A stretch of 64,000 bases of DNA from Callorhinchus milii. Taxonomy: Eukaryota. The stretch lies in the NCBI RefSeq assembly GCF_018977255.1, contig NW_024704768.1, positions 3,596,001 to 3,660,000 on the forward strand, given 5' to 3'. Below the pieces are notes generated by a model. It searched no databases and was not told the DNA's origin. It saw nothing but the letters and a program-made list of their open reading frames with translations. Made by a program: the position numbers and the translations under genes. Below, in pieces: positions 12,349-63,516 of the stretch; the stretch's first letter is position 1, and the number at the start of each line of letters is the position of its first letter.

Positions 12349-15300
12349 ATGCTGTGGCTGCGGCTCTGTCCGCGCCGCTGCCTCACCCGCATGTCCGGGG
12401 CGCAGAAGCGGCTCCGCGCGATGGTTCGCATCGGGACCCACGACGGCTCCTTCCACTGCGACGAGGCTCTGGCCTGCTTCCTGCTGCGGCAGCTGCCGGA
12501 GTATCGGGTACAGGGGGGGCGCGGGGGGGGGGGGGGGGAGGGGGGCCGCGGGGGGGGGAGGGGGGGCCGCGGGGGGGAGGGGGGTTTGTCACAACTGACC
12601 ACAACTGGTCATTGTCTTGACATCGACCACAAATGGGTTTTGTCTTAAATGCCCCTCTCTCCCTCCACACCTCCTCCTTCCCCTCCTCCCTCCTTCCCCC
12701 TCTCCCTCTCCTCCTCCCCTCCTCCCTACCTCTTCCCCCCCCACTCCCTCCTTTCCTCCCCTCTCCTCCTTCCCCTCCTCCCTCCTTCCCCCTCTCCCTC
12801 TTCTCCTCCCCTCCTCCCTACCTCTCCCCTCCTCCTCCTTCCCCTTCTCCCCTCCTCCCTACCTCTTCCCCCACCCCCCCCACTCCCTCCTTTCCTCCCC
12901 TCCCCTCTCCCTCTCCTCCTCCCTCCTTCCCCTTCCCCCTCTCCTCCTTCCCCTCCTCCCTCCCTCCCCCCCTCCCTCTCCTCCTTCCCCTCCCTTCCCC
13001 CTCTCCCCCTCCTCTCTCTCTCCTCCCCCCTCCTTTTCCCCCTTCCTCCCTCCCTCTCTCCCCCCCCACCCCCCACAGCTTAAACCGGTTACAGATCAGA
13101 TAATAATAATGATAATAATCCTCGCATTTGATATAGCGCTTTTCACGTCTTCTCGACGTCTCCAAAGCGCTTCACAGAATAGACTGTAAAGTCAATCAGA
13201 AGCTGGTTGTCTCGTCTCAAGACCCCCACCGCTTTGACCGCACTTTCATCCAACAACTTGCATTCACAGCCTCCCCCCCCCCCCCACCCCACCCCTCCCC
13301 GCGGGGTAGCGTAGCGCCTCTGAGCACTTGACAGTGGCGGAGCACAATGCCAAACCGGGTGTGTGGGGGGGGGGGGGGGGGAGGTGACCGTTGGCACTGG
13401 TTGAAGAGGAAGGTCTTCAGGCGTGACCTGAAGAGGGGGAAGGAGGGGACGCGGTGGAGGGGTAGAGGAAGCGCTTTGCGACGTCCTCCCGACGTGAAAG
13501 GCCGCTGTCTGTCGTTGGGGAGGGGAGGTGGCGGCTGCCCGTCGCCCCCGGCCCGGCCCGTAACTCTCGCTGTGTTTCCAGGAGGCGGAGATTGTTCGGA
13601 GCCGGAATGCCAAGCTGCTCGCGGAATGTGACGTGGTGGTGGACGTGGGCGGCGAGTATGTGCCTGAGAGACACCGATACGATCACCATCAGAGGTAAGT
13701 AAGCTGCTGAGGGCTCTAAACTCACTCTCCGACTCACTCACTCACTCACTCACTCACTCACTCACTCACTCACTCACTCACTGATTGATGCACTCCCTTC
13801 CTCCCTCCCTCACTCACTCACTGACACTCTCACTCACTTACTGATTGATGCACTCCCTCCCTCTCTCTCTCTCTCTCTCACTCACTCACCCAAGCCCAAA
13901 TCCCTGACTGGCCCATTGCCTTGGAACGCCCTTCCGACTTGAAAGGTGCTGCACAACTGTAATTTGTTGTCGATTGGCTTTCTCACTGTTACACACTTAC
14001 CTGATCATCCATCCTCACTCACTCACACACACACGCACATTCACTCACTCACTCAACAACAACGCTCACACTCGTACGCTCCCATTACTGTGAGATCCGA
14101 GTTGCGGAAACTCGGGATAGCGTGTGCGCGGTGAGTTTTACTGTCGCGTACTCACTCGCTCAATCCTTTCCCAGGACCTTCTCGGAGAGTATGTACAGCC
14201 TCCAGCCGGAGAATCCCTGGGTCACTAAACTGAGCAGTGCCGGGCTGGTCTTCTTTCACTTCGGGAAGAGAATCCTGTCTACGCTGCTGGGGAAGGAGGA
14301 GGGAGACCCACAGCTGCCAGCCCTGTACAATAAGGTGCGTTGAGTGTTCCCAGTCAGCGACGGTAACTTGAGTTTTCTGCTAGTATTTTTGCTGGGATGT
14401 GCCTCTGAGTTTCCTTCCCTCGCTGGCAGATGTACGAAAACTTCATCGAGGAAATTGACGCCATAGACAACGGGATTTCGCAGCACGACGGAGAGTCGCG
14501 ATATGCTTTGACCACGAACCTGAGTTCCCGTGTCGGCTACCTCAACCCGCCCTGGAACGAGGAGGAACAGGACACGGAGGTGAGTGACTGTCCTGAAGCT
14601 GCTGGTATTCCCTGTGAGTCGCGGGGGGATTGGGATTCGAACCTGCACACGTTGGCACCTTAACCTACTCAACCACCGGGTAGAGCCAGCACCAAAGATA
14701 TGTGCACCCACACAGCTTGGGAATAATGATCGTTTTCTGGGGCTAATCATCTGTCAAGAAGAAAAAAAAATTGTCATTCAATTCACGACTGTTTGTGGGA
14801 CACTGCTGTGCGCAGTCAGCTGCCGGGTTTCGTTCCACAAAATGCGGTCAATCCGCCTCCCCAAATGTTCGGAAAAACTCTTTGAGACGTCTCAACGACG
14901 TGATATAACGCAGTATCAAACGTGAGGATTATTATAATATCCGGTACGGCATATGCGCACTCTCTTGCTTAACACACAAACGTACTTGCTCATATAGACA
15001 CTATACTCGCCCTATCCCTATCCCATTGCTGTTGCGCTGAACCCATCACAGGAATTCCGGGGAATCTCCAGAACGGAGATAAACCTGTTTTGTTTATTAT
15101 GTCCGGCTGAAAGTGCCTCACAGTACTCACTCCCTTCCCTATCCCAGGCAGGTTTCCGTAAGGCCATGGAGTTGGTGGGGACAGAGTTTCTGGACAGGCT
15201 GCAGTTTTTCCACAAGTCCTGGCTCCCGGCTCGAACTCTGGTAGAGGAAGCCATCAGGAAGCGATATGAGGTAAGAGCATGGCTGCCAGCATCCGTCCGC

Positions 15301-16940
15301 TTCACCCTGACTCCCTGGGATCCGCTTTTCCCGGGCCCTGGCACGTCTTTCCGACGTGAAGGATGCAACAGTTGGGTAAATCGTTGTTGATGCGTGTGGA
15401 CGGGATTAAAGCACATGTGATGTGTGCAGAATAATGGGATATCGTCACTGGGATGATATCTAGATCCAAAACACTGCATTATACCAGGGTCAACCTGTTC
15501 CAGAGTTGGAGAAATCCTTTGTCCAGGAGTAATCCCGTAGCACTGCGGATCCCGTAGTGGTTAGTGTGCTCGCCTCGCAGGCGAGAGGACCCGGGTTTGA
15601 TTCCCAGCCGGGCAGGGTAAAACCTAGGCAAGTTTCCTTACTCCACACACACGCCTCTGTTTACCCAACAGCAAGTGGGAACCCGGTTGTTAGTCGAGTG
15701 GTGGCTCGCTTTCCGGGGGAAACAATCCCTCCACAAAACAAATGTGGTCATTCGATCCACGACTATTTGTGGGGACGCTGCTGTGCGCAATTAGCTGTCG
15801 CGTTTCACCCACAAAATACAGTCACTACATTTTACAATATATTCAGTGAAGCGTTTTGAGACGTCTCAATGACGTGATAAGGCGCTGTATCAAATGCAGG
15901 GATTATTATTATAATAATAATGCAGTGCTGTCTGTCTGTCTGTCCCCAGGAGGATCCCAGTGGTGAGATACTGGTGATGGCGAGGGGAGGCTGCCCTTGG
16001 AAAGAGCATCTCTTTAACCTGGAGAAGGAGCTGAAGGTCGAGAAACCCATAAAGTTTGTGCTTTACGTAGACCAAAGTGGGCAGTGGCGGGTCCAGTGCG
16101 TGCCCAAGGGACTGCACACTTTCCAGAACAGGTGGGAGAGCGCGCGGCGTGTGGATGCGTGTTGAGCAACTAGAAAACTAATTCCCCGTCAAACCCTGAC
16201 CCCCGTCACAGTCCTGCAAACAACAACAGCAACTACTTGCACTTCTCCTGCGCCCTCCGTGCAGGGTAGTGTCTTAAGAGTGCTCAGGACACAACGGGCT
16301 GTCAAGCCACCCCCATCCAGTCTTCCTCCACGTGAGATACCTAACCTAACCCTCTCCTTCGCGCTCTCTCCCCTGACACCCTTTAATATTCCTCCGTTTC
16401 AAACATCTCTCCAATTCTCTTATTAAAAGAGTTGCCTCAATGACTGTTTGCGGCAGAGAATTACGCACTCCCACCTCCCTCCATGCGAAGAGATTTTTTT
16501 TCTCTCCCAACGTCCCCTTTTATTGTTATTTCTAGAGCGTAAAACGGTTCATCAAAGGCCTTCGAGGTGTAATAAATCCTGTGAAGCGCTTTGAGACGTC
16601 TCAGCGACGTGATAAGGCGCTATATCAGACACCAGGATCGGGCGGGGGGGGGTGGGAAAGCTGATGAGCGAGAAAAATTGGCAAAAAAGTAAACAGTGAT
16701 TGAGAATGGTTAGCGCTGGTGTGAGCTTGTGCATGATTGCTGGTGTCTGTCAGGCTGTCGTTGCCAGAGGAGTGGAGAGGCGTTCGGGACGAGGCGCTGT
16801 CTGCTCTGAGCGGGATCCCGGACTGCGTGTTCGTCCACAGCGCGGGATTCATCGGAGGGAACAAGTCGAAGGCGGGAGCGCTGGAGATGGCGAGGAGGAG
16901 CCTCCGGGACCAGTCCGGTGACGGCGACACCGCTGTCTGA
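12349..16940 (+). CDS. MYG1: MYG1 exonuclease (C12orf10), 7 exons, ~357 aa
   Basis: Exons 12349-12507, 13582-13694, 14175-14334, 14430-14579, 15148-15270, 15950-16131, 16754-16940 in frame (1074 nt). Motifs [76 protein letters not shown] at 16981. Confidence 0.97.
12653..13075 (+). repeat. Polypyrimidine (CCT/CTT-rich) tract in MYG1 intron 1
   Basis: ~420 bp almost entirely C/T with recurring ctcctccttcccctcctccctccttcccc units. Confidence 0.9.
15547..15920 (+). mobile_element. tRNA-derived Deu-domain SINE, full length
   Basis: A box tggttagtg, B box gggtttgattcc, core gggacgctgctgtgcgcaattagctgtcgcgttt, tail gtgaagcgttttgagacgtc...gcgctgtatcaaatgca(TTA)n. Confidence 0.8.
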
Positions 16941-18189: not shown

Positions 18190-18197
18190 TGACGTCA
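18190..18197. promoter_or_regulatory. Full CRE palindrome in the likely promoter of the LRRC3-family gene
   Basis: TGACGTCA in repeat-free sequence. Candidate UTR donors at 18483 (aag|gtattg) and 18774 (aag|gtcagt); acceptor at 19860-19861. Confidence 0.4.
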
Positions 18198-19101
18198 TCC
18201 ACCTACTGTGTAAGGAATACTGGTGTTAACTCTTATCGGGAAGATGACAAGGAGCTTCTCTATGCAAGACAGTCACTTCAATGGGCCTGTCGCCTCCCTC
18301 ATTGTAAATCAGCTGAACAACAGATTCATATGGTGTTTTTTAACCTGAGCAAGGTCTCTCTCTCTCTCTCTCTCCCTCTCTCCGAGGCAGCTTTATTTAA
18401 TTAACTCGCGCCGTCTTGCTGAGATTAACCACAAACGGATTCCAAGTCTCGCATCAACAGCCGTGGAAGGACCAGGAGGAAGGTATTGATTTATATTCTA
18501 TCTACTCTCTCGCTGCCCTCCAGCACATTTACTTTGTAGTTCTCCAGACGAGAATGGGTGGTGGGGGGAGGGGGGAAAGATGAGAATGGGGGAGGGGGGA
18601 GATGCAGACCCTTTGGGAATCTGACAGTGCCAATGTCTCATCAGCTACGCTGCACATCCTCCGAATGAAGGAAAGAACATTTTTTTTTAATCAGAGCTAT
18701 TCATGTCAGACTGTCGCCAATCGACTCGGTGATTACTGTTGAGAGCAGCACAGGTATACCAGGGGGCAGGAAGGTCAGTAACTTACTGTACAAATCAGCA
18801 CTAACTCACTGAATGACACTTAACTCACCAGACGACACTAACACACCAGATTACACGCTAACTCACTAAGTGACGCTGTGGCTCACTAGACACATCACTG
18901 CTGTAACTTATCCCCAAAGGCCAATCAGCTAACGCTTAAATGTCTGGGAAGAATGGACATTTGAAGGTTTTCCTCTTCGATCGTGCCTTTAGTCACCCCC
19001 CCGTCTCCAGCTCAGCGTCAAACCACACCGCTGTTAAGTGCTCTGAGACACTGCTCACGTGAAGGGCGTCATATAAGTGCAAATTGTTGTTGCTTTTCAG
19101 T

Positions 19102-19413
19102 TAATAATAATAATCCTTGCATTTGATGTAGCGCTTGCCTTTTCACGTCTCGGGACGTCTCAAAAGCGCTTCGCAGAATAGGCTGTAAAGTGAACTGACT
19201 GTATATTTGTGGGCAAAACTTGGGCACAGCCGTGAACCGCAAACAGTCGTGTGTTGAAAATGACCAATTCACTGTTATTTTTTGTTTCGGAGGGATTATT
19301 ATCAGGCGTGTGGAGTAAGGAAACTTAACCCAAGGTTTCGCCCTCTGCCTGGAATCGAACCCAGGTGACCCGCTTGCAAGGCGAGCGCTCTAACCACTGA
19401 GCTGCAGGACTCC
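19102..19413 (-). mobile_element. Same SINE family, near full length
   Basis: Head ggagtcctgcagctcagtggttagagcgctcgccttgcaagcg...gggttcgattcc on the minus strand; (TTA)n tail. Confidence 0.8.
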
Positions 19414-19919
19414 GCGGGATGCCAAGTTGCTCCCCGTTGAGCCACACCTCGGTGATGAGTGGAGGGAAGGAATGGGAGCACGAGTGCTTTATGCTACGGC
19501 TGTCTCTGTGCCCAACTGATCAATTTCAGATCCTCCCACTCACCTTCGAACCCCTTCATGCCCTGGCACCTTGCTTCCCCTCCGACCTGCTTATCCCCCA
19601 ACCCACTACCTCCGCTCGACCGGATCCTCCCTCCTACTTGCCCTCGTTTCCACTATCGGTGGCCGCACTTTCAGCCACTATGCCCTGAAGTTCTGGAACC
19701 CTCTCCCTCTATCTCTCTGCCTTACCCCCTCCTTCCCCGTCTTCAGGTCATGCCTGAAGACCTTCCTCTTCGACCGAGCGCTCTGGGACGCTACCCTGCG
19801 TGAAGGGCGCTTTGTAAACACAAGTTGTTGTTGTTGGTTTGTTTCAAGCAACCCACCTCAGGAATTGGCTCCAGACCAAGTTTGCCAGATGAGCCCATGA
19901 GCGGCGGTGAGGGCGGGAG

Positions 19920-20687
19920 ATGCCACAGGCGATGTCCTGGGAGAGGTCTCTGACCGCGACCCTGGTCTTCTGGCTGCTCGGTGTTGGGGGGACACTGGCC
20001 TGTCCGGATGGGTGCAGCTGTTCCGGAGAGAACGGGGAGCGTATCGTGCACTGCAGCCACCGGAACCTGAAGGAGATCCCGAAGGATATCCCTTGGGATA
20101 CGTTCGTCCTGGACCTGGACTCCAACCAGATCACCGAGGTGCCGGACGGGGCTTTTAAGAACCTGCACCGGCTAGTGGAGCTTTACCTGTCCAACAACCA
20201 GATAGAGAGGGTCTCGGCCACTGCATTCCGGGATGTGGCGGGGGGCCTGAAGCTCCTCGACCTTTCCAACAACAACATCAGGAGGCTGAGGCCGGAGGCG
20301 TTCAGCAGCATGAGAGCCAAGACCAGGCTGTACAGCAACCCCTGGCACTGCACCTGCGACTTGCAGGAGCTCATCAGTGTCCTCAACCCGGACCTGGAGA
20401 CGGTGAACGACATCATCTGCTCCACGGCCATCGAGGAAGAGTACGCAGGGAGGTCCTTCATCCAACTGCTAAACGCGGGGATCAATTTCTGCAACGTGCA
20501 GCAGAAAACCATGGACGTGGCTATGCTGGTCACCATGTTCTGCTGGTTCTCTCTGGTCATTTCCTACGTGGTTTACTACGTGCGACAGAACCAGGAAGAC
20601 GCCAGGCGCCACCTGGAGTACCTCAAGTCGCTGCCCAATCACCACATGATGCAGGGCGAGGCAGATACAGTCAGCACCATCCTGTGA
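19920..20687 (+). CDS. LRRC3-family leucine-rich-repeat type I membrane protein, single coding exon, 255 aa
   Basis: Signal peptide; LRRNT CPDGCSC...VHCSHRNLKEIPKDIP; 3 LRRs; LRRCT NPWHCTCDLQ; TM DVAMLVTMFCWFSLVISYVVYYV; family-diagnostic RQNQEDARRHLEYLKSLP. AATAAA at 21514-21519. Paralogue identity unresolved. Confidence 0.93.
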   Translation: MPQAMSWERSLTATLVFWLLGVGGTLACPDGCSCSGENGERIVHCSHRNLKEIPKDIPWDTFVLDLDSNQITEVPDGAFKNLHRLVELYLSNNQIERVSATAFRDVAGGLKLLDLSNNNIRRLRPEAFSSMRAKTRLYSNPWHCTCDLQELISVLNPDLETVNDIICSTAIEEEYAGRSFIQLLNAGINFCNVQQKTMDVAMLVTMFCWFSLVISYVVYYVRQNQEDARRHLEYLKSLPNHHMMQGEADTVSTIL

Positions 20688-22760
20688 GGTTTCGTGACCT
20701 CCAGCTTTTTTGTGAGCAACAAAGCAAATTCGATGTCCAAAGTGCCTGCGTAAAGTGCCTGATTTTGCCCTCGAAAGGGAGGCAGAATACCTTCAATCAG
20801 GCCCCCGTCCCAATGTGCAGCCATAGGAGAAACTGGGCCCTAGAATGCAAGCAAGGGGAGCAAGCTTCCACCCTCCCCCTCTAGTCCACCAGCATCAGTC
20901 AGGTTCTAACTGATACAACTTGCACTTAATATAGCGTCCCAGAGCACTTCAATAACAACAACTAGCATAAGCACACACCTTCCAAAGTATTGGAGATTAT
21001 TATTGCACAAGTCCAGTGGAGGCTGAACGGCCTTTCAAGGTTCTGGCAACATGTAGCCGAGCTACGTTGGTAAGCCAGTCGGGGCTTAGCACTCATCAAT
21101 AGCACCTTGGACATATTGCAGAGCTGCCTGGGTGTGTCTCCTCAAAGGCAGGTTAACCCCAGGGAAGCGCCCACTGGCAATCAGAGGAGGGGTTCATCCG
21201 GGATGGTGGGGTAGAAAGAGGTCAGCGCAGCCCAATCCCTGACCTGACCACACGCGCTTTCCGTCGAGGCAAGGTGTGATTCTACCCAATACAGACGAGC
21301 AGGGTAAACCAGGCTCATTTTCCTCTTTCCTAATCCACGGGATGCCGAGGGGATTGCAACTCCCTGCAGCGATCAGTAACTCAAGTGTGTGCATGTACTT
21401 GTGTGCGCGTGCACGAGGGAATGCGCGGGCATGTGTTTCACACTAATTCTGCTGCCGCAAATCCAGTGTCTAATTTTTGCACATCATTTCCCCCTTCTCT
21501 CCCCTCCCAAATGAATAAAAAAAATGAAGGATTGTTGAGGGTTGCTTTCTCTGACTTTCAAAGAATTTGCAGCAACCGCAGTTTCTGTGCCCCCGGCGAG
21601 GTATCCGACCATTCTCCCTGTGCCATCCCGCTCGTGGATGCGAGTGAACCGCACCAGTCTCGGTTTCCGCACCGCGCATTGTGACCAGCGCCTCACGCAG
21701 CGAGCTGCTTTGAAACACACTGGCTTTTATTTCAGGGAAACACGGGGTGTGCACTGCGTTTAGCCGAGGCAACGGACTGGATGAGACGTTAAATTCAGGC
21801 CCCATCTGCCTGCTGAGACCGACTTTAAAGATCCCATGACATCATTGGCACAGGGAATGGGGTTGTTCCCCAGTATCTTGGCTACCGCTGCCCCAGCTAA
21901 CGAGGCCATTTGCGTGACCTTAAAGTTACTACACTTAACAGCTTTTGTGGTGTATTTTGAGACAATCTGATATTGCGGGCAGCAGCAAATGAAATGCAAG
22001 GGTTGTCATTAACTCAGCTGGATATATCACATGCAAGGATTATTATTATGATTATTCATGCTGTCTAGCTATTAAATGCTGTTGGTCTGGGTTGAATAGC
22101 AGAGCCCCGACCCCCGAAAAGAGGCAGAGCGTGACTGCTTCACGGTGACTGCTCTGCATTCCCTCGGCTACGAGGCTATATACTCAAGCCAGAGAAACTT
22201 GTTTTGGAAAAAAAAAACACACTAAAATGAATCTGCAGTGGCAGCTTGTGTAGAATATTTATAACTCTGGAGACAACAGGAGCTGAGCCTTGTATTGGCT
22301 GGAAGCAAATCACTGATGTGTTGGAAAGAAGTGAATCCCGAGGCTAACAATGACCTACATTTCTGCTGCATTCAGCACCAGCATACACAAGCCCCTGCTC
22401 CCCAAGCCACAGTATTTAATAATAATCCTTGCATTTGATATAGCACCTTATCACATCGTTGAGACATCTCAAGTGCTTCGCAGAATATACTGTAAAATGT
22501 AGTGACCAGATTTGGTGGATGAAACGCAGCAGCCAATTGCGCACAGCATTTGTACAGATACACCAGGCGCACCCAAAATTCCTCCGAGCCTCAGCCTGTG
22601 AGCCCATTGTCCCTTGAAATCCAAGATGGCGAGGAAGTGTGGCTGCAACTTAAAATGTGGAGACCATTTCCCCGCGCCCCCATTTAAGAAGCCCCAACTC
22701 TGAAGACGATATCTGCCGCCCTTATCTGGACCCCCGGTCTCACTCTCCACTCCAGTTCCA

Positions 22761-25700
22761 TCACAACTCCGAAAACAGTTCTCGGGACGAGCTGCCATTA
22801 CTCCGGAACAAGGCAGGGCTGCGCCCAGGGCTTGGCCGGGACATCTGAGCGCTTACAAAGTAAAAAGGGATATTTGAGATTCTGCCAGTCGACCAACCCT
22901 AAAAAAAAGGGAAAAGGCGAAAGGAAAAACTCTGCTTAGTACGGCAGAACATTACAGAACACAAACGGGTCCATTGAGGTTAAGGTTACATTGGTGTTTC
23001 TCCCCCCACAAGCTATCCAGTCTAATCCCACCGGCCACTCACTTCCAATGCCCTTTAATATTCCCCCTCTTCAAATATCCATCTACTTCAGCTTCAAAAT
23101 AACGTATGGACTCTGCATTCACACACACGCGCACACGCATTATTGCCAGCAAATCAACGCACCCTCACGCTTCTTTTTATTTATAAACTACTCGCTCAGT
23201 TATTCTGATTTACATTCCCGTTCGTTCGCAGGATCACCTTAGTCCCCACCGCTAGTCGCGTAGCATTAATGTCTCAAATCGCATGCCTTTTTTTTAAAAA
23301 AAAACAAGCAAAGAAAGCGGGAAAGGGAGGTGTTGTTATGGTGGTGACCAAATTCATCGTAGAGGTAGGTTTTTAAAAAGGAGTGCTTGGAAAGCAGAGG
23401 TGAACAGATTTGGAGAGGGAGCTCCAGAGAGGAAGGATGTAGAGGCCGAGGCATGGCTGTTGACAGTGGGCGGACAGGCGAGGGATATGAAGGAGGCCTA
23501 AGTTTGAAAAGCAGGTATTATAAATAGAATGTCAATGCCAGCAGTTCCTTACCACAGTGAGCAGGGCTCCCTTCTTGAAGTTGGGATGGAAGCTGAGGAA
23601 CTGCGGTTCAGCATCAATCTCGCCCTGAATAAAACCACTGGGAGACAAGAACACACACTCGAGTCAGTTGCAAAGCAAACACGATTTTAAGATTTAATGC
23701 GTGATCTGAAGGACAACATCTGACAAACACAACACGCCTCACAATACTACAGTGGAGTGTCAGACTGGACTTTAAGCTCGTCTGGATTTTAGTCGAGAGA
23801 ATGGAGCCATTTGATGGATCATGGCTTTTTTTAAAAAGTAACCCCTTTTAAATGAATTCCCTCTTTTTCCATTATCTTGTAAATTTTTAAAAAAAACTAC
23901 TCAAACACTCACTCACAAATATACAGTCAATTCACTTTCCAGTATATACTGTGAAGCGTTTTGAGATATCTAGAAGACGTGAAAAGTCCTATATCAAATG
24001 CAAGTATTATTGCTACTCAGGTGCTTACCCAGGTCCCTGTTGAACCAGTTGTTTGTGGTAATACAGTAAACATCACATAAGTCACATCAGTTGGAACCAT
24101 ATATTTAATATAACATATGCAAAGTGAGTTATGTTAAACTTGCATAGAATATAAACTCTTGAACAGGACTTGGGCATCTGCAACTCAGGCCATTATATGA
24201 TTTATACTTCTGTGAGTTTTACTGGAATATTTCAACACCCGAACAACCCCTGTATTGTGTTAGAAAGAAACCAACTTGCAATTTAAGACTGAACAAAAAA
24301 ATTGTCCACAATGAATAATAATCCTTGTTTTGGGTACTGCGCTTTTCCTGTCAAGAGGACATCTCAAAGCCCTTCATAGGATTCACTGCAAATTGTAGTG
24401 ACTGCGTTATGTATGCACAATTCTGGGTAACCTTCAAATATTTTAAGACAAAATGATCTTCCAAGGTAAAACTAAGAGGTGCTTCGAGTCTCTGAACCGC
24501 AGTACATACCAGGGCAGGAGTTCGAACACAGGGCTGACGTTGGTTTTGAAGACTGCAACTAAGGTTTTGCTTTCTACATTAGTTGGGTCACCTGGGGTGG
24601 GGGAAGAGAAAGAAAGAAGACAAAAAAATAAAGTACACGGGCAACAAACACATACAAACAACCCTTTCACCCAAGTCAGAATAATTTCCAGCCTGCCACG
24701 AGAACTACCAAGCTCTGTACGGGTCAGTGTGATGTCTTTGCAGAACGGTTAATGTGCGGGTGAGTGAATGGTCCAATTACCTCGGAGAATAACTGCAAGT
24801 CTCTCACCGCTTGGGTCCCACACCATAGACTGCACCTCCCCTCCGACCCTGACAAAGACATCCATCAAAGCTCAAGTATAAACCTTTCGGTTGAAAATAA
24901 AAAACATTCAGGGGAATATCTGACATCAACTCTCCTCCCTTCCACCCGTAGGACACTCAGAACCATAGAAATTTAAAGCGGAGAAGACAGCCATTCGCCC
25001 AGGGCAGGTTCTTTTAAAGAGTGGATTAAAGAACAGAATTGGTGCCAGTTTTACCCTTGCTTGCAACACGAAGAGGCGCATTCTACCATTGACCACATTG
25101 CTCCTCTGCAGGGCCAGGTGGACGGATAAACAACCTGCAGTCAGAAACGTGCTTACCTAATTTCAGCCTGCTCGATCTCAAAGGTAGTCTTGGATAAGTC
25201 AGCACAAATCAAAGCTGTTTTTGAGCCCCCAACTTTTCCCAGTAATTCCCCTAAAAGCAGCGATGAAGAGTTGTTCAAAGTCAATTACCGCTATAACAAT
25301 GTCCAGCTATTTCACAAACAAAATACAGTCAATCCACTTGAGACGTTTCAACGATGTGATAAGGTGATATCAACTGCAAGGATACCATATTATTATTGCA
25401 GTAAAAAACAGATCCAATAGGTAGAGGCACTAAACAAATAACATTTGTATAACGCCTTTCACATCAGGAGGACATCCCAAAGCGCTGGACAGTCAGGCAT
25501 CTGACCTGAGCTGGTGGTTGGGAACAGGAAGGGTGGAGAGCAAGGAGGGTAGGGCTAGGAGAGTGACCGAAGGCACAATCGAAGAGGAGGGTCTTGAGAC
25601 GGGTCCTGAAACCCGGGTAATAAACACAACAACGGCACTTATAAAGAAACCAATTTCCAAGTTACAACTAAATTCAAGAAATTTCCACAATTCTTTGCAA

Positions 25701-28700
25701 TCTTAAAATTTGAAGGCAAAATGTTTCACAGGCTACAATTAGATAGAACTTATACCAGCTATCGGGCATAGCTTGGAGCAAAAGCCCCTATTGCAGGGGA
25801 AACCAATGCTAAAACTGTTTGACATTCAGTGTAAGTTACTAGTTCTGAGAAACTGGAAAGGGTATCCTTTTCTGTCAGCGCTAAAATTTCAAACCTACCA
25901 GTGTCCAAGAACGTCAGTAAATAAATCACAGATTCGCCTTCCACTGTGAACAATAAGTGGGTCCCATCCGGGCTCCAGCACCCTGTCTAAAACACAGCAA
26001 GACAAAGACGCACAGCGGGGGAAATCTCACATCAAAACTAAGTTAGAACAAATTCAGTTTCTGGTTAAAAAAAAAAAATTAGGCCTTTCTGTTCGAGCAC
26101 GTACCTGGCACTGCCCATTCAGTGTCGGCCAACGCTCACAGGTCCACGTGCGAGTTTCCCAGACCCTGTAATAAAGGAGAGAACATCGTAGAATATAGAA
26201 TCCTACAGCACTGAAGGCCATTTGGCCGATTGTGCCTGCTCTTTGAAAGAGCAATCCAATTAGTTCCACTTCCCCTCTCTTTCCCCACAGCCTTGCAATT
26301 TTTTTTTCTTTTCAAGTACATCTCTAATTCCCATCTGAAACTTATTATTGAATCTACTTCCACCACCCTTTCAGGCAGTGCATTCCAGATCTAAACAACT
26401 CGCTGCACACAAAAAATTCTCTTCATCTTCCCGCTGGTTCTTTTGCCAATTACCTTAAATCTGTGTTCCCTGGTCACAGACCCACTCACCTGTGGAAGCA
26501 GATTCTCCTCCTTTTTTTAAACAGATTCTCCTCATAGTTTTGAACGCCTCTATTAAATCTCTCCTTAACATTCTCTGCTCTAAGAAAAAGAATCCCGGCT
26601 GCTCACTCTTGATCACTACGTTTCACAACCGTGTACCGCTGAATCCCTTCATAAGCTCCCTCTAGATACAACTATAAGCAGCTTTAGCATATTTAAAATG
26701 CCTCCTGAAAGTAGTCCCATTATTCCCAGCTAATGTTCCAGCTTATCCCTTTCAGCACCCACCTGAAGACTGAAGATGGGGTGGTGGCCAGCACTCGATT
26801 TCCATCGGGGGACCAGGCTAGATACGTGACCCCTCCACCTCCAACTCGCTGCAATGGCACACAGATCTCAGTGGCGACATCCCAAATCTTTGATGGGGGG
26901 GAAAAAATAAACACAAGCACACATTAGGCCATTAAAACAAACAAACAAAAAACATTTATAGTACAGATACCTATTGAATCAAAATCTCAAAACATGACAG
27001 TAATTTCTGATAATTAACCTTTTTTGTGGTAGCCATTGGTGGTAGCAATTTGCACACGGTAAAATCCCACACAGTCGAACAGTGAATAATCTAGAGAACA
27101 GTGGTTAATCTAGAGAACTGTTGGCCCAGACACTGGGAGAAATGCCCATCTCTTCCCTCCCTCCTTCACACCACCCACCTCCATGTTGTCCACCTGAACA
27201 AGGAGATTGAGCCTTGGTTTGATGTCTCATTGGAGAATCAGTATCTCTAACATTCGGTTGGGAGAATTTCATGGATACACAAGAAGAAGAAAAAAATGAC
27301 ATGTGTATAGCGCCTTTCACGTGAAAAGCACTAGACAGTCAAGGATATGCTGAGGGTTGGAATCAGGAGGGCAGGGAGGGTCGGGGTAGGAGGGTGATCA
27401 ACCACACGTCGCCCTTAACATGTCTGTCTCAGCTTCTTACCAGCATCGAAGTGTCGACTGGTGATGCAGACAGAAGCAGCCCTCCTTTGGGGCACCAGGC
27501 AAGCGAGGTCACAGGGCAGTGGCCGGGGTGAGAGAGAACATGTGCGCAGCCAGAGGAAGGCCTGAAATAGAGGGAAAACAAAGCTCAGATTTCAGTCTCC
27601 AAATTACAACTGTTCAACAGCAACAACTTGCTCTTATGTAGTGCCGTTCACATAGAAGAATGTCTCAAAGTGCTTAAGAAAATTTCCATGCAAAATTGAA
27701 CACCATGTCTCACGTCTGCCCAAGTTAGAACATGTAAACGCATCAGCGATTGAGCTTTAGCTAAGGGGACTTTGGTTCTAAATGGTAAGGATAGCTCTGT
27801 AGTCAAGATTAGTTAGATGCACACTACACCAAAGGACATTATAATGGTTCCCCCTGTACCTGGTGGAGAGGGAGGTGGGATCTACCTGCCAGACCAGGAT
27901 GCAGCTCTGGCATCCCACAGCCAGCACAGAGGCACACAGGGGTTTCCACGCCAACGCTGCTACGTTCTTTTGCAGCCGGTGTTTCAGTGTCGGTACCGTC
28001 TCACTGGAAGGAATAAATATACATGTTTTTTTTTCATAGATTCATAGGTTCATAGAATGTTACGGCACAGAAGGAGGCCATTCGACCCATCGAGTCTGTG
28101 CAGGCTCTTTGACAGAGCAAGTCACTTTCACTAACCCTAATCACCAGCTTTCTCCCCATAACCCTGCAAACCCGTCTTCCCCCGATACCTATCCAGTTCT
28201 CTCTTAAAAGCTGTTATCGAATCGGACTTCACTGCCCTTTCAGGCAGATCATTCCAAATTCAATTGAGAGTCAACACACACACTGCACACAACGAAGGAC
28301 AAGCATAATCACCTTTGAGAATTATAAACACGGATGGAATCGTCTAGCAGAGCCACTGCAAACTTATCAGTGTGCGGATGCCAGGCAAAGGCACGCAGAG
28401 AGCACCCCGTCCTGCAAGAGACAGAGCACAGACACCTAAGTCACACAGGGATCTCCACTGGCCACTTAACCCCTGCTTCTATTCAGCAAATAAAGAGGTA
28501 ATAATACATGCATTTGATATATTGCCTTATCATGTCTTTGAGATATCTCAAAGTGTTTCACAGAATATTGTAACTGCAATGAGGCTTTTAAAGATGGATA
28601 GAAGGGTGGGGTTGGCATAATAATATAGCTTGTAAATTAACAACTTATCGTTTCTCCTTGGTCCTCCACAATTAAACTCCCGCCAGCGTCACTCTTGTCC

Positions 28701-44442: not shown

Positions 44443-47400
44443 ATGGCGTGTGTGGAAGAACCAAGGAACCTGCCGGCTTCCCTGAGCAACTTCCAGTCCA
44501 CGCTGAAGGACCGGGAAGATAACTTCATAGCCTTGCGGAAGCTGGAATCCCCGGGGTCTCGCACCCCCGGAGGGACCCCCGAACAGGACCTGTCGCCCAC
44601 TCAGTGCGTGATGCAGAACGTCCTGTCTCCCGAGGGCGGGGGTCACAGCCCCAACGCCATGACGGATGTCAGCGAGGACGCCCGCGAGCACTTCTCCAAC
44701 AGCGTGCTCCAGCTGCACGAGAACGAGGGGGGCAATGTGGCGGGGGCTTCCGGGAGCGAGGGGGCCGGGGGGGAGTGCAGGCGGGACGCCAGGCGGCTGG
44801 ACCACGTGAGGATACAATGCACGCAGTCCGGAGGGGGCTTCCTGGATGGGCTGTTCGGCTGCCTGAAGCCCGTGTGGTACATCATCGGCAAGGCTTACTC
44901 CACCGAACACAAGCTCCATCACGAAGGTGAGCCCCTCACCCCCGGGCCTCCCATAATCCCCCCTCCCCCTCGCTTGGCCACAGACAGCGCTGTCCATACA
45001 GACCCGTCCGCCCCCTCCACTCTACTGGGCTCCAGCCTGCTCCATGTCCTGCCCCTTCTTAGCCCTGCCCCCCCCCCCCCCCCCCCTCCACCATCGACGG
45101 TCAGGCCTTCAGCCTCTCTGCCCTCATCCTTTGGAACTCCATCCCACATTCCCTTTGCCTTGCTCCCTCTGTTGCCTCTTTCAAGGCCCGTCTCAAGACC
45201 CTTCTCTTCGACCGGATCCTCCTTTGGTCACCCTCCTACCCCCACCCTCCCTGCCCTCCACCCCTCCTGATCCCAACACCCAGCTCGGGTGCAAATCCTT
45301 AACTATTCAGTGCCTTGGGACATGTCCCCCCAACATGAAAGGCACTGTGTAAATGTAATTTGTTATTGTTGTTGTTTCCGATCTGTGGTAACCCCTCGAG
45401 CTGCCTATTTCCTGATCTTAGGCAAGTTTCCTTACTCCGCACACACGCCTCTGTTTACCTAGCAGTAAGTAGGAACCCGCTTCTGAGTCGATTGGCTTTT
45501 CTGTTTTAAAAAAAATAATAATAGTGATTTGGTCACTCAATCCATGACTGTTTGTGGGACACTGCTGTGCACAATTGGCTGCCGAGTTTCGCCCACAAAA
45601 TGTACAGGCAATTTATTTTACGGTACATCAGTGAAGCACTTTGAAACGTGTCAACGACATAATAAAGGGCTTTATCAGGATTATTAATATTCCTATCAGT
45701 GCAGAGCGCCAAGTGTGTAAACGAGTGTGAACCCGCCCTGGGACGCTACCCTGTGTGAGGGGCGCTGTAAATGCAAGCTGTTGTTGTTTGTGTAGGCATC
45801 GTGCTCTGTTTGTCCCCAGAATCCTGGGAGGTGCCGTTTGAGGAGATCTCGGACCTGCAGTGGGTGGGCAGTGGGGCCCAGGGTGCTGTCTTCCTCGGCA
45901 AGTTTCACGGGGAGGAGGTGGCCGTCAAGAAAGTGCGGGATATGAAAGAGACTGACATCAAACACCTGCGGAAACTCAAACACCCGAACATCATCACCTT
46001 CAAGTAGGTACAGCCCCAACCGAAGCACGTTTTCCGCTCTTCCTCTCTCCCTCTCTCCTTGTTTCTCGTTCTCTTTTTCTCTCTTTTCCTTTTTCTCCAT
46101 CTCTGTCTCCCTGATTTTCGTTTTCACTTTCTTTCTCTCTCTCTCTCTCTCTCTCCCTCTCTCCCTCTTTCTCTCTACCCCTCTCTGTCTTTAAAGCGCT
46201 CTGCGATGCCGTCCGGCGTGGAGGGCGCTAAATAAATCCAAGTTGTTGTTGTTGTTGTCTTGCAAGTTTGCAGAGTCTGGGTTGAAATTAGTTGCCTGTC
46301 TCAGGGAGCGCCGACAGCTGACTTCCTGGATGTTTGTCTGCAAGCGCTCTGCGTGAGGGACGCTATATAAATGCATGTTGTTGTTGTTGTTGTTGCTTTT
46401 CCTGGTCATCCACTTCCCAGCTCCGCTCCCCTCTGGTGTGGGAGAGAGTGGCCTGACGGACACCTGCTCTGCAGTGTGTGTGGGCAGGAGCAGCCCTGGG
46501 GATAAGCAGGAGCCAAGGACCAGACAGTGATCAATACACAAGAAGTCAGACATCTCTCTGAGCACCGCTCACTCAAGTCGGACCCAAACCCTGAGACCCG
46601 CTGTGTATCTGCATGTTGTATAACCATCCTTAATAATAATAATAATACTAATCCTTGCATTTGATACAGCGCCTTAATTGCGTCTTAAACCGTTTCGCAG
46701 AATAGACTGTAAAGTGAATTGTATTTTGTGGGCGAAACGCGGCAGCCAATTGCACCGAGCGGCGTCCCCACAAACAGCCGTGGAGGATTGAGTGGCCAAT
46801 TTATTTTTTATTCTTTTAAAGCAGTGCGCCTTATCGCGCCTTAGGCGAGTCTCAAAGGATTCACTGTGAAATGTAGTGATTGTACGTTTCGTTAAAGGGG
46901 AACCCAGCAGCCAATTTACGTCTTAAATGGGGCAGCTCTGGGACGCTATATAAATGCGTATATAAACACAAGCTCAAGTTGTCGTCGTCGTCGTCGTGGC
47001 CCTCACGGTGGTACTCTTCCATTTCCGCAGGGGTGTGTGTACCCAGGCCCCGTGTTACTGTATCATTATGGAGTATTGCGCCCAAGGGCAGCTGTACGAG
47101 GTGCTGAGGGCCGGCAGGAAAGTCTCCCCTACGCTGCTAGTGGAGTGGTCCATGGGCATTGCCGGGGGCATGAACTATCTGCATCTCCACAAAATCATCC
47201 ACCGTGACCTGAAGTCACCAAAGTGAGTGCTGGGGTGGGGGGGTGGGAATGGGGGGGGAGGGGGAGGGCTCCATAATAATACTACTAATAATAATCCTTG
47301 CATTTGATATAACGCCTTATCACATCGTTGAGACGTCTCAAAGTGCTTCACAAGATACACTGTAGAATAGATTGACTGTGTATTTTGTGGGTGAATAATA

Positions 47401-50400
47401 CAGTTATTAATAATTAATAGTAAACAATCCACATTGACAATACACTATAATTAATGTTAATAAGGATCAATATTTAAATAATAATGGGTGGTAAAATTAA
47501 TAATCACTATAATAATAATACACATTAATAATTAATGATATCAGATAATTATCCTTGCATTTGATATGGAGCCTTATCACGTCATCGAGGTGTGTGGGGT
47601 GGGGGTGGGGAGAGGAGTGTGCGGAGGGGGTGAGGGGAAGGGGTGATGGTAAGGAGTGAGGTGGGGGTGAAGGCAGGGGATGTGAGGAGAGGGGGTGAGG
47701 GGAGGGGTAGGGAGGGACGGTGTGAGAAGAGGGTGTGAGGAGAGTGTGTGTGGGTGAAGGTCAGGATGACATGTCTCCACTCTCCCCGCTGCAGTATGCT
47801 CATCACCTATGATGATCTGGTGAAAATCTCTGACTTCGGGACGTCCAAGGAACTGAACGACAAAAGCACCAAAATGTCCTTTGCCGGCACCGTGGCCTGG
47901 ATGGCCCCTGAGGTCATTCGCAATGAGCCTGTGTCTGAGAAAGTGGATATATGGTGAGGGGCCAATAAACAGGCACATAGCCAGCGTGTGTGTGTGTGTG
48001 TTATCTCACTCTCTGTCCCTGTGTGTGTGTCTGTCTCTTTCTCTCTGTCCCTGTGTGTCTTTGTGTATATGTCTCTCTCTCTGTCCCAGTGTGTGTGTGT
48101 GTGTGTGTCTTTCCGCCTATCATTGTGGTTTGTGTGTGCCTTTCTGTCTGTCTCTGTGTGTACATATGTGTGTCTTTCCATCTGTGTGTACGTGTGTGGG
48201 CGGGTTATCTCTCTCACCCTCCCTCTGCGTCTCTATGTCTTTCATTGCCTCTGACTCTTTCTGTGACCCTCTCTCCCTCTCCCTCCCTCCCTCTCTCGTT
48301 CTGCGTCTGCCGTTCTCACTGAGCAGGAGGCTGTAGATTAGAGATTGTCACAGCAAAGAGCAGCTCTCTGTGATTAAACTAATTATTCTGGGTCTGTTCG
48401 AAAGGGTTAAACAGAAAAATGGTGATTAGTGGGAGTGGGGGGCGCAGGTGGTGGGAGGAGTCCTGTGTTTGGTCACACAATCTGTTCAGAGAGATTTAAA
48501 CCACCTCCCGCAGAGCGAGGGCTTTAATCTGCTTCTCTCGCCTGTGCAGCAACGCCCTCCCTGGCAGCCCCCTCCCCGGCAGATCCTCTCCCCCTCCTTG
48601 GGGGCACCAACGCTGTCACCCCCCACCCCTCCCTGTCCCCTGTGCCCCAAGAGGGAGGATCGCCTGTTTCAGGGACCGTTCCAACAATCACCTCACAGAA
48701 CAGTGACATATCACCGTCAACCAGGCTCCAGTTCACACCCAACACTCAGTGTGTGTGTGTGTGTGTGTGTGGGGGGGGGGTGTCTGTGCATGTGGGCTTC
48801 TCTCTAGGTGTGCATTTGTTTGTCTCTATAAATGTGTGTATGTGTGTTTGTCTCTGTGTATGTGTCTCTCTGTTTTTGTGGGTTTCTCTATCTCCCTTTG
48901 TGTGTGTGTGTGTGTATTTGTATGCGTGTCTCTCTCTTTCGGTGTGTGTTTATCTCTCTCACTGTGTTTCTCTCTCGCTCTTTCTGTGTGTATTTTCTCT
49001 CTCTCTTTCAGTGTGTGTGTGTCTCTCTCTCTCTGTACATGTAGGTATCTGTGTGTGCGTGTGTGTGTGAGACTCTCTTTCCTCTGCAATTTTATACGTC
49101 CAATGAAATGAAATGCAGAGTCGCTCCCATCTACTGCCACCCAGAGGAGACATTGTCCCACGCACACAAAAGCCCTGAAAATCAGTCACTTACACTTGAC
49201 AATAACAATAATAAACCTTGTATTTGATATAGCGCCTTATCACGTCTTCGAGACGTCTCAAAGCGCTTCACAAGATATACTGTAATATACTGATTTTCTC
49301 TCTCCTCTCTCTCTCAGGTCCTTTGGTGTGGTGCTGTGGGAGCTGTTGACGGGAGAAATTCCCTACAAGGACGTTGACTCGTCAGCCATTATCTGGGGCG
49401 TCGGGAGCAACAGCCTCCACCTCCCTGTGCCCTCCGGTTGTCCGGACGGATTCAAGCTCCTTCTCAAGCAGTGCTGGTGGGCTTTTGTTCCCTCCCCACT
49501 TTGACGTGATGTGTGTGTGTGTGTGTGTGTGTGTGTCGGCTCCACTGACTCCCCATTCCCCCAGAGGATCGAGTTCAGAATCCTTGTCCTCGCTTTCAAA
49601 GCCCTCCACGGCCTTCCTGCCTCTGTGACCTGCTAACCTGATACCAACTTTTCCGTTCCTTCCGCTCAGTCAGCTCCGGCCTCCTGCACGTGTCCCTTGG
49701 CACCTCCGCTCCACCATCGGCAGCCGTGCTTTCAGCCACTACACCACCGAGACTGTCCCTCCCTGCCTCTACCCCTCCACCTGCCCCTCCTCTCGTTGCC
49801 TGGCTTCAGATCGAACCAGGAGACTTTTCTCTTCGCCCTCTCCTATGGTCACCTCCCATCTCCTGCTCCGCCACTGATAAGCAGTCTGAGACACTACCCC
49901 ATGTGAAGAGCGTTGTGTATTGCAAAGGCTGTGGGGAGGGAGAGTGTCATCGGGGAATTGCAGGCAACAGCCTAGAGGTAAAGTTTCCTTATTATTTATC
50001 AGGAACGGGAAACCCAGGAACCGTCCATCTTTCCGGCAGATCCTCCTCCACCTGGACATCGCGGCGGCTGACGTGCTGGGCACTCCCCAGGAGACTTACT
50101 TCCAGTCTCAGGTAACTGAGGGGCGGTGGAGGGGGGGTAATAATCCCTCCCCCCAAATAAATAAATAAATAAAATAATCATAATTTAGTCACTCAACCCA
50201 TGGCTGTTTGTGGGGACGATGCTGTGTGCAATCGGCTGCCGCGTTTCGCCCACGAAACGTACAGTGAATTCACTTTGCAGTGTATCCCGCGAAGCGCAGT
50301 GAGACGTCTCGAAGACGCGATGAGGCGCTGTGTCAAACGCGAAGTTAATTATTATTATTACTAAACCCCTCTCATCTGGGTGAGCAGGTGGAGTGGCGGG

Positions 50401-57889: not shown

Positions 57890-63516
<5,627 letters not shown>

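Follow-up and report, generated by a model that had tools for sequence, protein, structure and literature searches.

The window analysed here is a stretch of 64,000 nucleotides from the elephant shark, Callorhinchus milii (RefSeq assembly GCF_018977255.1, contig NW_024704768.1, positions 3,596,001 to 3,660,000, forward strand). Between MYG1 and AAAS it contains an intact gene, for a predicted single-pass cell-surface protein, of the LRRC3 family of leucine-rich repeat (LRR) membrane proteins, which has three known members in humans; its stop-free open reading frame (ORF; 19920-20687, + strand) encodes 255 amino acids (aa). We are confident that this gene represents a fourth LRRC3-family clade; it is likely the HoxC/RARG-chromosome copy from the two vertebrate genome duplications (1R and 2R), and was likely lost in mammals. 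A preliminary description, made from the sequence alone, had proposed a fourth whole-genome-duplication paralogue in the RARG/HOXC paralogon, and this proposal stands on four family genes on four Hox contigs, four phylogenetic clades and a well-supported quartet.

Four family genes and their phylogeny

A search of the genome with the full protein returned four full-length family genes, each an uninterrupted ORF, and a search with the 62-aa membrane-plus-tail region returned the same four and nothing else. All four contigs also carry a homeodomain cluster of 10-11 matches:

C27:3.62 Mb, window gene; homeodomain cluster at 1.64-1.77 Mb (HoxC)
C2:45.40 Mb, LRRC3B; homeodomain cluster at 48.06-48.16 Mb (HoxA)
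C6:14.89 Mb, LRRC3; homeodomain cluster at 25.81-25.90 Mb (HoxD)
C23:2.92 Mb, LRRC3C; homeodomain cluster at 1.09-1.23 Mb (HoxB)

Each of the four paralogous chromosomes carries a single copy among paralogous neighbours, as is characteristic of 2R ohnologues, and the three named genes each have a Hox-bearing contig of their own, a point that the preliminary description had asked to have checked. The window protein is 57% identical to LRRC3, 52% to LRRC3B and 49% to LRRC3C of the same genome, and 70-74% identical to all three over the membrane-plus-tail region. Exons for a RAR-type DNA-binding domain occur near three of the family genes, 25.6 kb away on C27 (just left of the window), 0.34 Mb away on C2 and ~1.4 Mb away on C23. 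Three ORMDL genes occur on C27 (154 kb from the family gene), C23 (0.76 Mb) and C6; integrin-beta genes are found on C27, at 52 kb from the family gene, and on C6, at 0.72 Mb, and C6 also carries a multi-exon EPTP gene, which we take to be TSPEAR-like, at 0.77 Mb. Human LRRC3 lies on chromosome 21. ITGB2 is described as having left the HOXD chromosome in primates only (PMC12198301), and such a move would explain the human position of LRRC3. The four contigs pair as large with small, C6 (31 Mb) with C27 (5.3 Mb) and C2 (>122 Mb) with C23 (10.6 Mb); 2R pairs are reported to consist of one large and one micro chromosome, with loss biased to the small one (PMC8302630).

We built a quick tree of 123 rows (A0A4W3JNM8, the UniRef entry nearest to the window protein, was left out) and a careful tree of 42 rows, with support given as bootstrap/Shimodaira-Hasegawa-like approximate likelihood ratio test (SH-aLRT). 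Both recovered four clades, supported in the careful tree at 99-100 bootstrap and 94-100 SH-aLRT: the clade containing the window protein, hereafter clade 4 (100/99), LRRC3 (100/96), LRRC3B (100/100) and LRRC3C (99/94). In the careful tree each clade holds one gene of the elephant shark genome together with bony vertebrates, and the duplications are therefore older than the split between cartilaginous and bony fishes. The window protein is the earliest branch of clade 4, human LRRC3B is placed in the LRRC3B clade and mammalian LRRC3C in the LRRC3C clade (99/97). Approximately unbiased (AU) tests rejected grouping the window protein with LRRC3 (p = 0.0024), and clade 4 with LRRC3B (p = 0.006) or LRRC3C (p = 0.0056); the protein nests in none of the three named clades, in agreement with the preliminary description. 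We also tried mammalian LRRC3C as a fast-evolving clade-4 gene, and this was rejected (AU p = 0.0011), the proteins falling in the LRRC3C clade. Mammalian LRRC3C is strongly diverged.

The unrooted careful tree splits LRRC3B and LRRC3C from LRRC3 and clade 4 (100/98). 1R is reported to have yielded HoxA/B and HoxC/D (PMC12198301), and this split is the pattern which that division predicts, given our inferred cluster letters. LRRC3 resembles the window protein in length, architecture, membrane/juxtamembrane motif, one-exon ORF and side of the quartet, but it forms a separate clade, lies on another chromosome, and mammals, frogs and sharks have it. LRRC3B and LRRC3C share the family with the window protein and likewise have S/T-x-V/L ends, whereas they occupy the other side of the quartet, and their neighbourhoods are of RARB type on C2 and of RARA type on C23. 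By this history, 1R would have produced one A/B copy and one C/D copy; 2R would have produced LRRC3B (HoxA) with LRRC3C (HoxB), and LRRC3 (HoxD) with the window gene (HoxC microchromosome). The numbers of clusters at 50% identity, one per named species in tunicates and four in lampreys, also speak for this history. The microchromosome copy would later have been lost or shortened repeatedly, in mammals and probably in frogs and elasmobranchs, with a likely truncation in birds. The window gene completes a four-of-four ohnologue set in the Hox paralogon, and with a tree that fits the current 1R/2R model the family becomes a clean marker of this history.

Several points weigh against this account. 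The Hox clusters were named C (C27), A (C2), D (C6) and B (C23) from size, spacing and neighbours, not from sequence. With two lamprey proteins as the outgroup, the root falls, with weak support, on the clade-4 branch (85/76) and not between the A/B and C/D pairs, and the symmetric root is neither rejected nor recovered (AU p = 0.31); this tree and its AU tests omit nine rows that were long or redundant, namely two each of lampreys, tunicates, mammalian LRRC3C and teleosts, and Acnodon. A second quick tree, with all four lamprey and two tunicate rows, does not resolve the base and places one long-branched lamprey protein inside clade 4. The RAR label is tied: the ligand-binding exon near the window scores human RARG highest, with RARB within 0.1 bit, and we call it RARG because of the neighbourhood and because another RAR-type gene lies beside LRRC3B on C2. 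Finally, the position between MYG1 and AAAS was examined in one genome only, where the local order may itself be wrong at the RAR gene (see below).

The lamprey results are what could favour a different origin, in which clade 4 arose by an older or separate small-scale duplication on the ancestral Hox-linked chromosome and not as the 2R sister of LRRC3. Such a duplication would agree with the early rooting of clade 4, with the lamprey protein that joins it and with the four LRRC3-like clusters of lampreys. We consider this origin improbable: there is one family gene per Hox contig, the unrooted quartet is the published one with both alternatives rejected, the expected rooting is not rejected, and the tree tool flagged the lamprey join as long branches meeting. 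Lampreys share 1R and therefore provide no clean outgroup (PMC8302630).

Gene structure, transcription and neighbourhood

The window gene is transcribed and has two exons, a non-coding first exon and a single coding exon. Its features are as follows (UTR, untranslated region; X1 to X4 and X8 are runs whose contigs were aligned to the window):

18190..18197, strand not assigned, palindromic 8-mer TGACGTCA resembling a cAMP response element (CRE); sole copy in the window
18356..18482, +, non-coding first exon (X2 piece 18388-18479 preceded by 32 letters; X1 and X3 pieces; 5' end approximate, possibly further upstream)
18483..19848, +, 5'-UTR intron, 1366 nt, GT-AG (joint in X1 and X2, none in the DNA-like X8)
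19849..21524, +, second exon: 71 nt of 5' UTR, the entire ORF and the 3' UTR (unbroken X1 and X2 contigs)
19920..20687, +, ORF of 255 aa, fourth LRRC3-family paralogue
21514..21519, +, AATAAA, candidate poly(A) signal

We label X1 to X4 RNA-like because the last MYG1 intron is spliced in their contigs (4/4 runs); no listed run is recorded as RNA. The intron of the window gene is spliced in two of the four, X1 and X2, which come from a single study: the contigs join 18479 to 19846, and GT..AG borders appear when the cut is moved by +3, so that 18482 is joined to 19849. Contigs of X3 and X4 lack a joint in the window gene, which we did not count as evidence against the splice. From the acceptor onwards the coding exon is continuous up to the stop after the terminal residues STIL in both spliced contigs (X1, 19846-21455; X2, 19846-21524), and the preliminary description was right to assign the gene its own acceptor and a complete LRR-transmembrane ORF in a single coding exon. 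The nearest database match, A0A4W3JNM8 from the same species, is 98% identical, with the divergence confined to the final residues; we rejected the alternative C-terminus of that gene model, as the RNA contigs favour the unspliced STIL ending.

The spliced 5' UTR holds upstream ATGs at 19889 and 19897, both out of frame and one of them opening a three-codon upstream ORF, and these two ATGs could dampen translation of the gene. The two regulatory elements named in the preliminary description fared less well. A candidate poly(A) signal is present, but the data show only weakly that the 3' end lies near 21524: the X2 contig stops there, yet within a run of As in the genome, and one X3 contig extends to 21606. 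The CRE is likewise present as an 8-mer, at chance frequency (64000/4^8, ~1 expected copy), and an X1 contig spanning 17871-18346 covers it; it is at most a candidate promoter element and may itself be transcribed.

A coding region confined to one exon, a nearest same-genome paralogue (LRRC3) at 57% identity and databases that often call the clade-4 gene plain "LRRC3" could together suggest a translocated LRRC3, LRRC3B or LRRC3C, or a recent chimaera-specific retrocopy. We ruled out both on the 5'-UTR splice, the careful tree and the AU tests, and give them almost no weight. The three named genes are all present elsewhere as uninterrupted ORFs and nesting in LRRC3 is rejected, which speaks against translocation; the spliced 5'-UTR intron and orthologues at 60-66% identity in lungfish, coelacanth and caecilians speak against a retrocopy. 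The preliminary description had named a recent lineage-specific retrocopy as a way in which it could fail, and the gene is not one, given this intron and orthologues across jawed vertebrates.

Neighbouring genes were called by Pfam on 440 of the 1050 frames that run for 38 aa or more without a stop, giving the order ESPL1, PFDN5, MYG1, window gene, AAAS, kinase and KH-domain exons. The gene therefore does lie between MYG1 and AAAS, as first described:

42..225, -, exon resembling the RAR-gamma1 N-terminal region (translation; 19.7 kb from the ORF)
5378-6095, +, separase (ESPL1) exons (Pfam)
9449-10433, +, prefoldin (PFDN5) (Pfam)
13564..16937, +, MYG1 exons, upstream neighbour (PF03690 on six frames; last intron spliced in all four RNA-like runs)
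23535..28440, -, AAAS (Aladin) exons, downstream and convergent (PF25460 on five frames; spliced X2 contig)
45771-49501, +, kinase gene (Pfam)
59386-63516, -, KH exons (Pfam)

The last AAAS exon lies at ~22520-22897 in RNA contigs. We take the kinase to be MAP3K12-like the KH exons to be PCBP2-like and the exon at 42-225, from its resemblance, to be RAR-gamma1-like. The earlier estimate that RARG lies ~20 kb away holds for this exon, but not for the more distant DNA-binding-domain exons, and the RARB tie of the ligand-binding exon qualifies the name. That exon (C27, L042:1606-1773, - strand) encodes Ser in helix 3 where human RARG structures carry Ala; we take this position to be one of the RAR pocket residues that set subtype selectivity, with Ser as the alpha type. 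ESPL1 exons flank and interleave with the RAR gene on the opposite strand (C27:3587820-3588650, +, and window 5378-6095, +), an arrangement that may be real or may be a local mis-assembly. Between AAAS and the KH exons (window 28440-63516) no Pfam match to SP7, SP1 or AMHR2 was found among the scanned frames. The gene order after AAAS presumably differs from the human one, which suggests an inversion.

In other fishes, a figure legend (Fig. 5 of PMC8389408) lists map3k12, myg1 and lrrc3 consecutively, as part of a block that ayu, pike, medaka and gar have in common; as far as the legend goes, this hints that the position beside MYG1 is conserved there. A teleost-profile search of host DNA in metagenomes returned five loci, two of clade 4 and three weak matches to unrelated LRR proteins. 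The two teleost-like clade-4 contigs (1.4 and 2.9 kb) contain no neighbour exons and are too short to reach a neighbour.

Distribution, probable losses and a short bird-type protein

The distribution searches covered the best 120 of 313, 600 and 552 passing proteins, with lengths of 136-482 aa. Profile scoring of 225 proteins assigned, among the matches listed, 82 to clade 4, 132 to LRRC3, 7 to LRRC3B and 4 to LRRC3C; the smallest margin was 51 bits, with profiles built partly from the scored rows. Besides the window protein, the 82 clade-4 proteins comprise 70 named and 11 unnamed records. Among the listed matches, the named fishes are elephant shark, bichir, sturgeon, gar, many teleost orders, lungfish and coelacanth, and the named tetrapods are caecilians, axolotl, turtles, lizards, an amphisbaenian and snakes. 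An apparent absence from otophysan fishes was dropped after a characiform member (Acnodon) was found. Retention in the chimaera lineage only, as the preliminary description had it, is thus incorrect: bony fishes, lungfish, coelacanth, caecilians, salamanders, turtles and squamates have the gene as well.

None of the 70 named clade-4 proteins listed from the protein databases within this length range comes from a mammal, bird, crocodilian, frog, shark or ray, and mammals, frogs and sharks supplied many LRRC3 matches in the same lists. Human MYG1 and AAAS nearly abut. On the database absence and this adjacency, we consider the clade-4 gene likely lost in mammals, and probably also in frogs and elasmobranchs. 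The earlier claim of loss in mammals holds to that extent; its basis is protein databases and the adjacency of the two human genes, and the gaps extend beyond mammals to frogs, elasmobranchs and crocodilians. Two further points count against the losses: absence from mammals, frogs, sharks and crocodilians means absence from listed database matches and from one search of 50% representatives, and the shark HoxC region lies on the X chromosome and is hard to assemble (PMC10620051), which weakens the shark absence.

The gene has been present in databases under borrowed names. The window protein itself is in NCBI and UniRef, and clade-4 genes are labelled "LRRC3" or "LRRC3-like"; RefSeq and UniProt "LRRC3-like" entries from lungfish, coelacanth, gar, teleosts, axolotl, caecilians, turtles and squamates are clade-4 orthologues with no distinct name, mixed with true LRRC3. 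The preliminary description called the protein unnamed, and it does lack a distinct name but not an annotation. Many fish, amphibian and reptile genes called "LRRC3" or "LRRC3-like" are accordingly not orthologous to human LRRC3. Shark proteins that group with LRRC3C carry the RefSeq name "LRRC3B". A catshark "lrrc3" of low expression, mentioned in PMC13188829, is known by name alone. A fourth LRRC3 paralogue is not described in the literature found by full-text search, which leaves most subscription journals outside, and ohnologue databases may list the family. LRRC3 was not found in the searched supplements of PMC13450315, PMC8302630 (five files, file 4 not among them) and PMC4504502, and the available parts of PMC13143021 and 10.1101/2023.04.08.536076 contain nothing on LRRC3 or on the pairing of Hox A/B versus C/D.

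We first read the bird gap as a loss and gave this up after short bird-type proteins surfaced. A profile of the C-terminal 120 aa of the four paralogues, searched without a length limit against 50% representatives, gave 68 matches, 4 already known and 64 new; all 64 were compared with the four clades and 20 names were checked. The matches include the four lamprey clusters, the tunicates Styela, Ciona and Clavelina, and two short sauropsid-type proteins: XP_068266434.1 of the potoo Nyctibius grandis (96 aa, "LRRC3B-like") and an unnamed cluster of 44 members that is 86% identical to it where aligned (none of the 40 members read is named). In the 107-aa form a hydrophobic leader is followed by a cysteine stub resembling the beginning of LRRNT and by a short linker; the membrane helix and the juxtamembrane motif come next, and the tail is acidic and ends like those of turtles and lizards. 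Some 145 aa of LRR and LRRCT are gone. The potoo record lies on a sequence of 27.5 Mb, which is large for a bird HoxC microchromosome.

These short forms probably derive from clade 4, judging from their sequences. The 107-aa form scores 68 bits with the clade-4 profile versus 49-55 with the others, and the potoo protein 49 versus 35-38; the best BLAST matches of the bird-like form are turtle clade-4 proteins, and a tree places both inside sauropsid clade 4 (99/98, ~60 columns). On the same ~60 columns, an AU test did not reject placing them with LRRC3 (p = 0.34). Host DNA in metagenomes yielded no locus of the bird-like protein, and the ESM Atlas gave no usable match to it. If of clade-4 origin, the short form may make a working protein, a suggestion we put forward tentatively. 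Bird LRRC3 proper is long-branched with an altered juxtamembrane motif (sparrow), and two unnamed fragments resemble decayed LRRC3.

The bird-like forms (96-107 aa) fall outside the 136-482 aa range and surfaced only without a length limit, so a similar LRR-less form in mammals, overlooked by length-limited searches, would leave the proposed origin of the gene correct and the mammalian loss wrong. We judge this very improbable. In the unlimited search with the membrane-plus-tail part, the matches with mammalian names were LRRC3C (names checked for 20 of the 64 new matches), and the two sauropsid-type clade-4 fragments were the bird protein and its unnamed cluster; the near abutment of human MYG1 and AAAS also speaks against it.

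Protein architecture, proposed mode of action and significance

The window protein has the family's architecture: a predicted signal peptide, LRRNT, about three LRRs, LRRCT, one transmembrane helix and a short tail in ~255-260 aa. Its parts map to the window as follows:

19920..19997, +, predicted signal peptide, aa 1-26 (hydropathy peak at aa 10-28; helix 9-22 in the model)
19998..20498, +, ectodomain, aa 27-193: LRRNT, three full LRRs and a short fourth strand, LRRCT (Pfam, motif/cysteine scan, AlphaFold2, Foldseek)
20514..20582, +, predicted transmembrane helix, aa ~199-221 (hydropathy 2.23 at aa 200-218; within model helix 190-237)
20583..20636, +, juxtamembrane cytoplasmic helix, aa 222-239 (best-conserved part of the family)
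20673..20684, +, C-terminal STIL, matching the class I PDZ-binding consensus (putative)

Behind the hydrophobic N-terminus, Pfam places an LRRNT at aa 27-58 and matches LRRs; a motif scan starts three LxxLxLxxN repeats at aa 61, 85 and 110, the LRRCT cysteines stand at 144, 146, 167 and 191, and all eight cap cysteines (four N-cap, four C-cap) are present. A sequence scan of the protein found no N-glycosylation sequon. The AlphaFold2 model (22-row alignment; mean predicted local distance difference test score 85.9) shows a short LRR solenoid and a single helix at aa 190-237. Its nearest solved folds in Foldseek are generic short LRR modules (an amphioxus protein resembling the variable lymphocyte receptors (VLRs), Slit2 and lamprey VLRs), and no solved LRRC3-family structure is among the 60 best PDB sequence matches or the fold matches listed. 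Mean column conservation (54 rows, tunicates to mammals) reaches 0.80 across the membrane segment and 0.85 over the 18 cytoplasmic residues that follow, versus 0.56-0.60 in the ectodomain. The TMF-x-WF motif has Gly in LRRC3, LRRC3B and LRRC3C, and mostly Cys or Val in clade 4. The preliminary description had noted that STIL fits a class I PDZ motif, and comparable ends are general in the clade: 78 of the 82 clade-4 proteins end in S/T-x-V/I/L/F (32 of 82 when Phe is not counted).

From these sequence features we tentatively suggest, at somewhat below even confidence, that the clade-4 protein is an accessory subunit or adaptor of the plasma membrane. The near-invariant transmembrane and juxtamembrane helix would dock on a membrane partner common to all LRRC3 proteins, a scaffold would hold the complex through the C-terminal PDZ-type motif, and the LRR ectodomain, which is short and more variable, would supply paralogue-specific contacts outside. 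A point against this is that the literature examined names no molecular partner of any LRRC3 protein. The protein could instead be mainly a ligand-binding adhesion or recognition receptor for which the LRR ectodomain is essential. The modelled ectodomain fold resembles VLR, Slit, NGL and LGI1 LRR modules that bind protein ligands, and all eight cap cysteines are kept, whereas the ectodomain is the less conserved part and the likely bird form lacks the LRRs yet retains the helix and tail; we regard the receptor as possible but somewhat doubtful.

Both the pattern of conservation and the bird form, which likely lacks the LRRs, make the membrane helix the part of the family to examine, including in LRRC3B, which is described as a putative tumour suppressor (PMC9928207). 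A bolder combination, in which borrowed names hid a fourth LRRC3 gene from recognition and birds shrank it to ~107 aa by deleting the LRR ectodomain in frame, we hold to be unlikely as a whole. If it were true, and the bird mini-protein were made and under selection, it would be a natural deletion experiment with the membrane and juxtamembrane helix as the core, and LRRC3 proteins would be auxiliary subunits of some membrane protein.

Ohnologues retained in non-mammalian vertebrates and lost in mammals are a familiar class, which limits the importance of another hidden member, as does the fact that the LRRC3 family is without an established function. The window gene resembles this class as a fourth copy on a gene-poor microchromosome with repeated loss, in keeping with the reported bias of loss (PMC8302630), and differs from it in that birds likely keep a truncated clade-4 form.

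As an analogy for mode of action, and not for membership, the BK gamma subunits (LRRC26, LRRC38, LRRC52 and LRRC55) also have a signal peptide, an LRR-only ectodomain, one transmembrane helix and a short tail, and are described as docking on their membrane partner via membrane and cytosolic contacts (PMC13694676). They differ in having six LRRs versus three in the window protein and a positive tail where the charge of the window protein's tail is mixed, and they belong to the "Elron" cluster, from which Lrrc3 is handled separately as a small subfamily (PMC2235866). The fold match to LRRC26 is generic (TM-score ~0.4, 19% identity), below the VLR and Slit matches.

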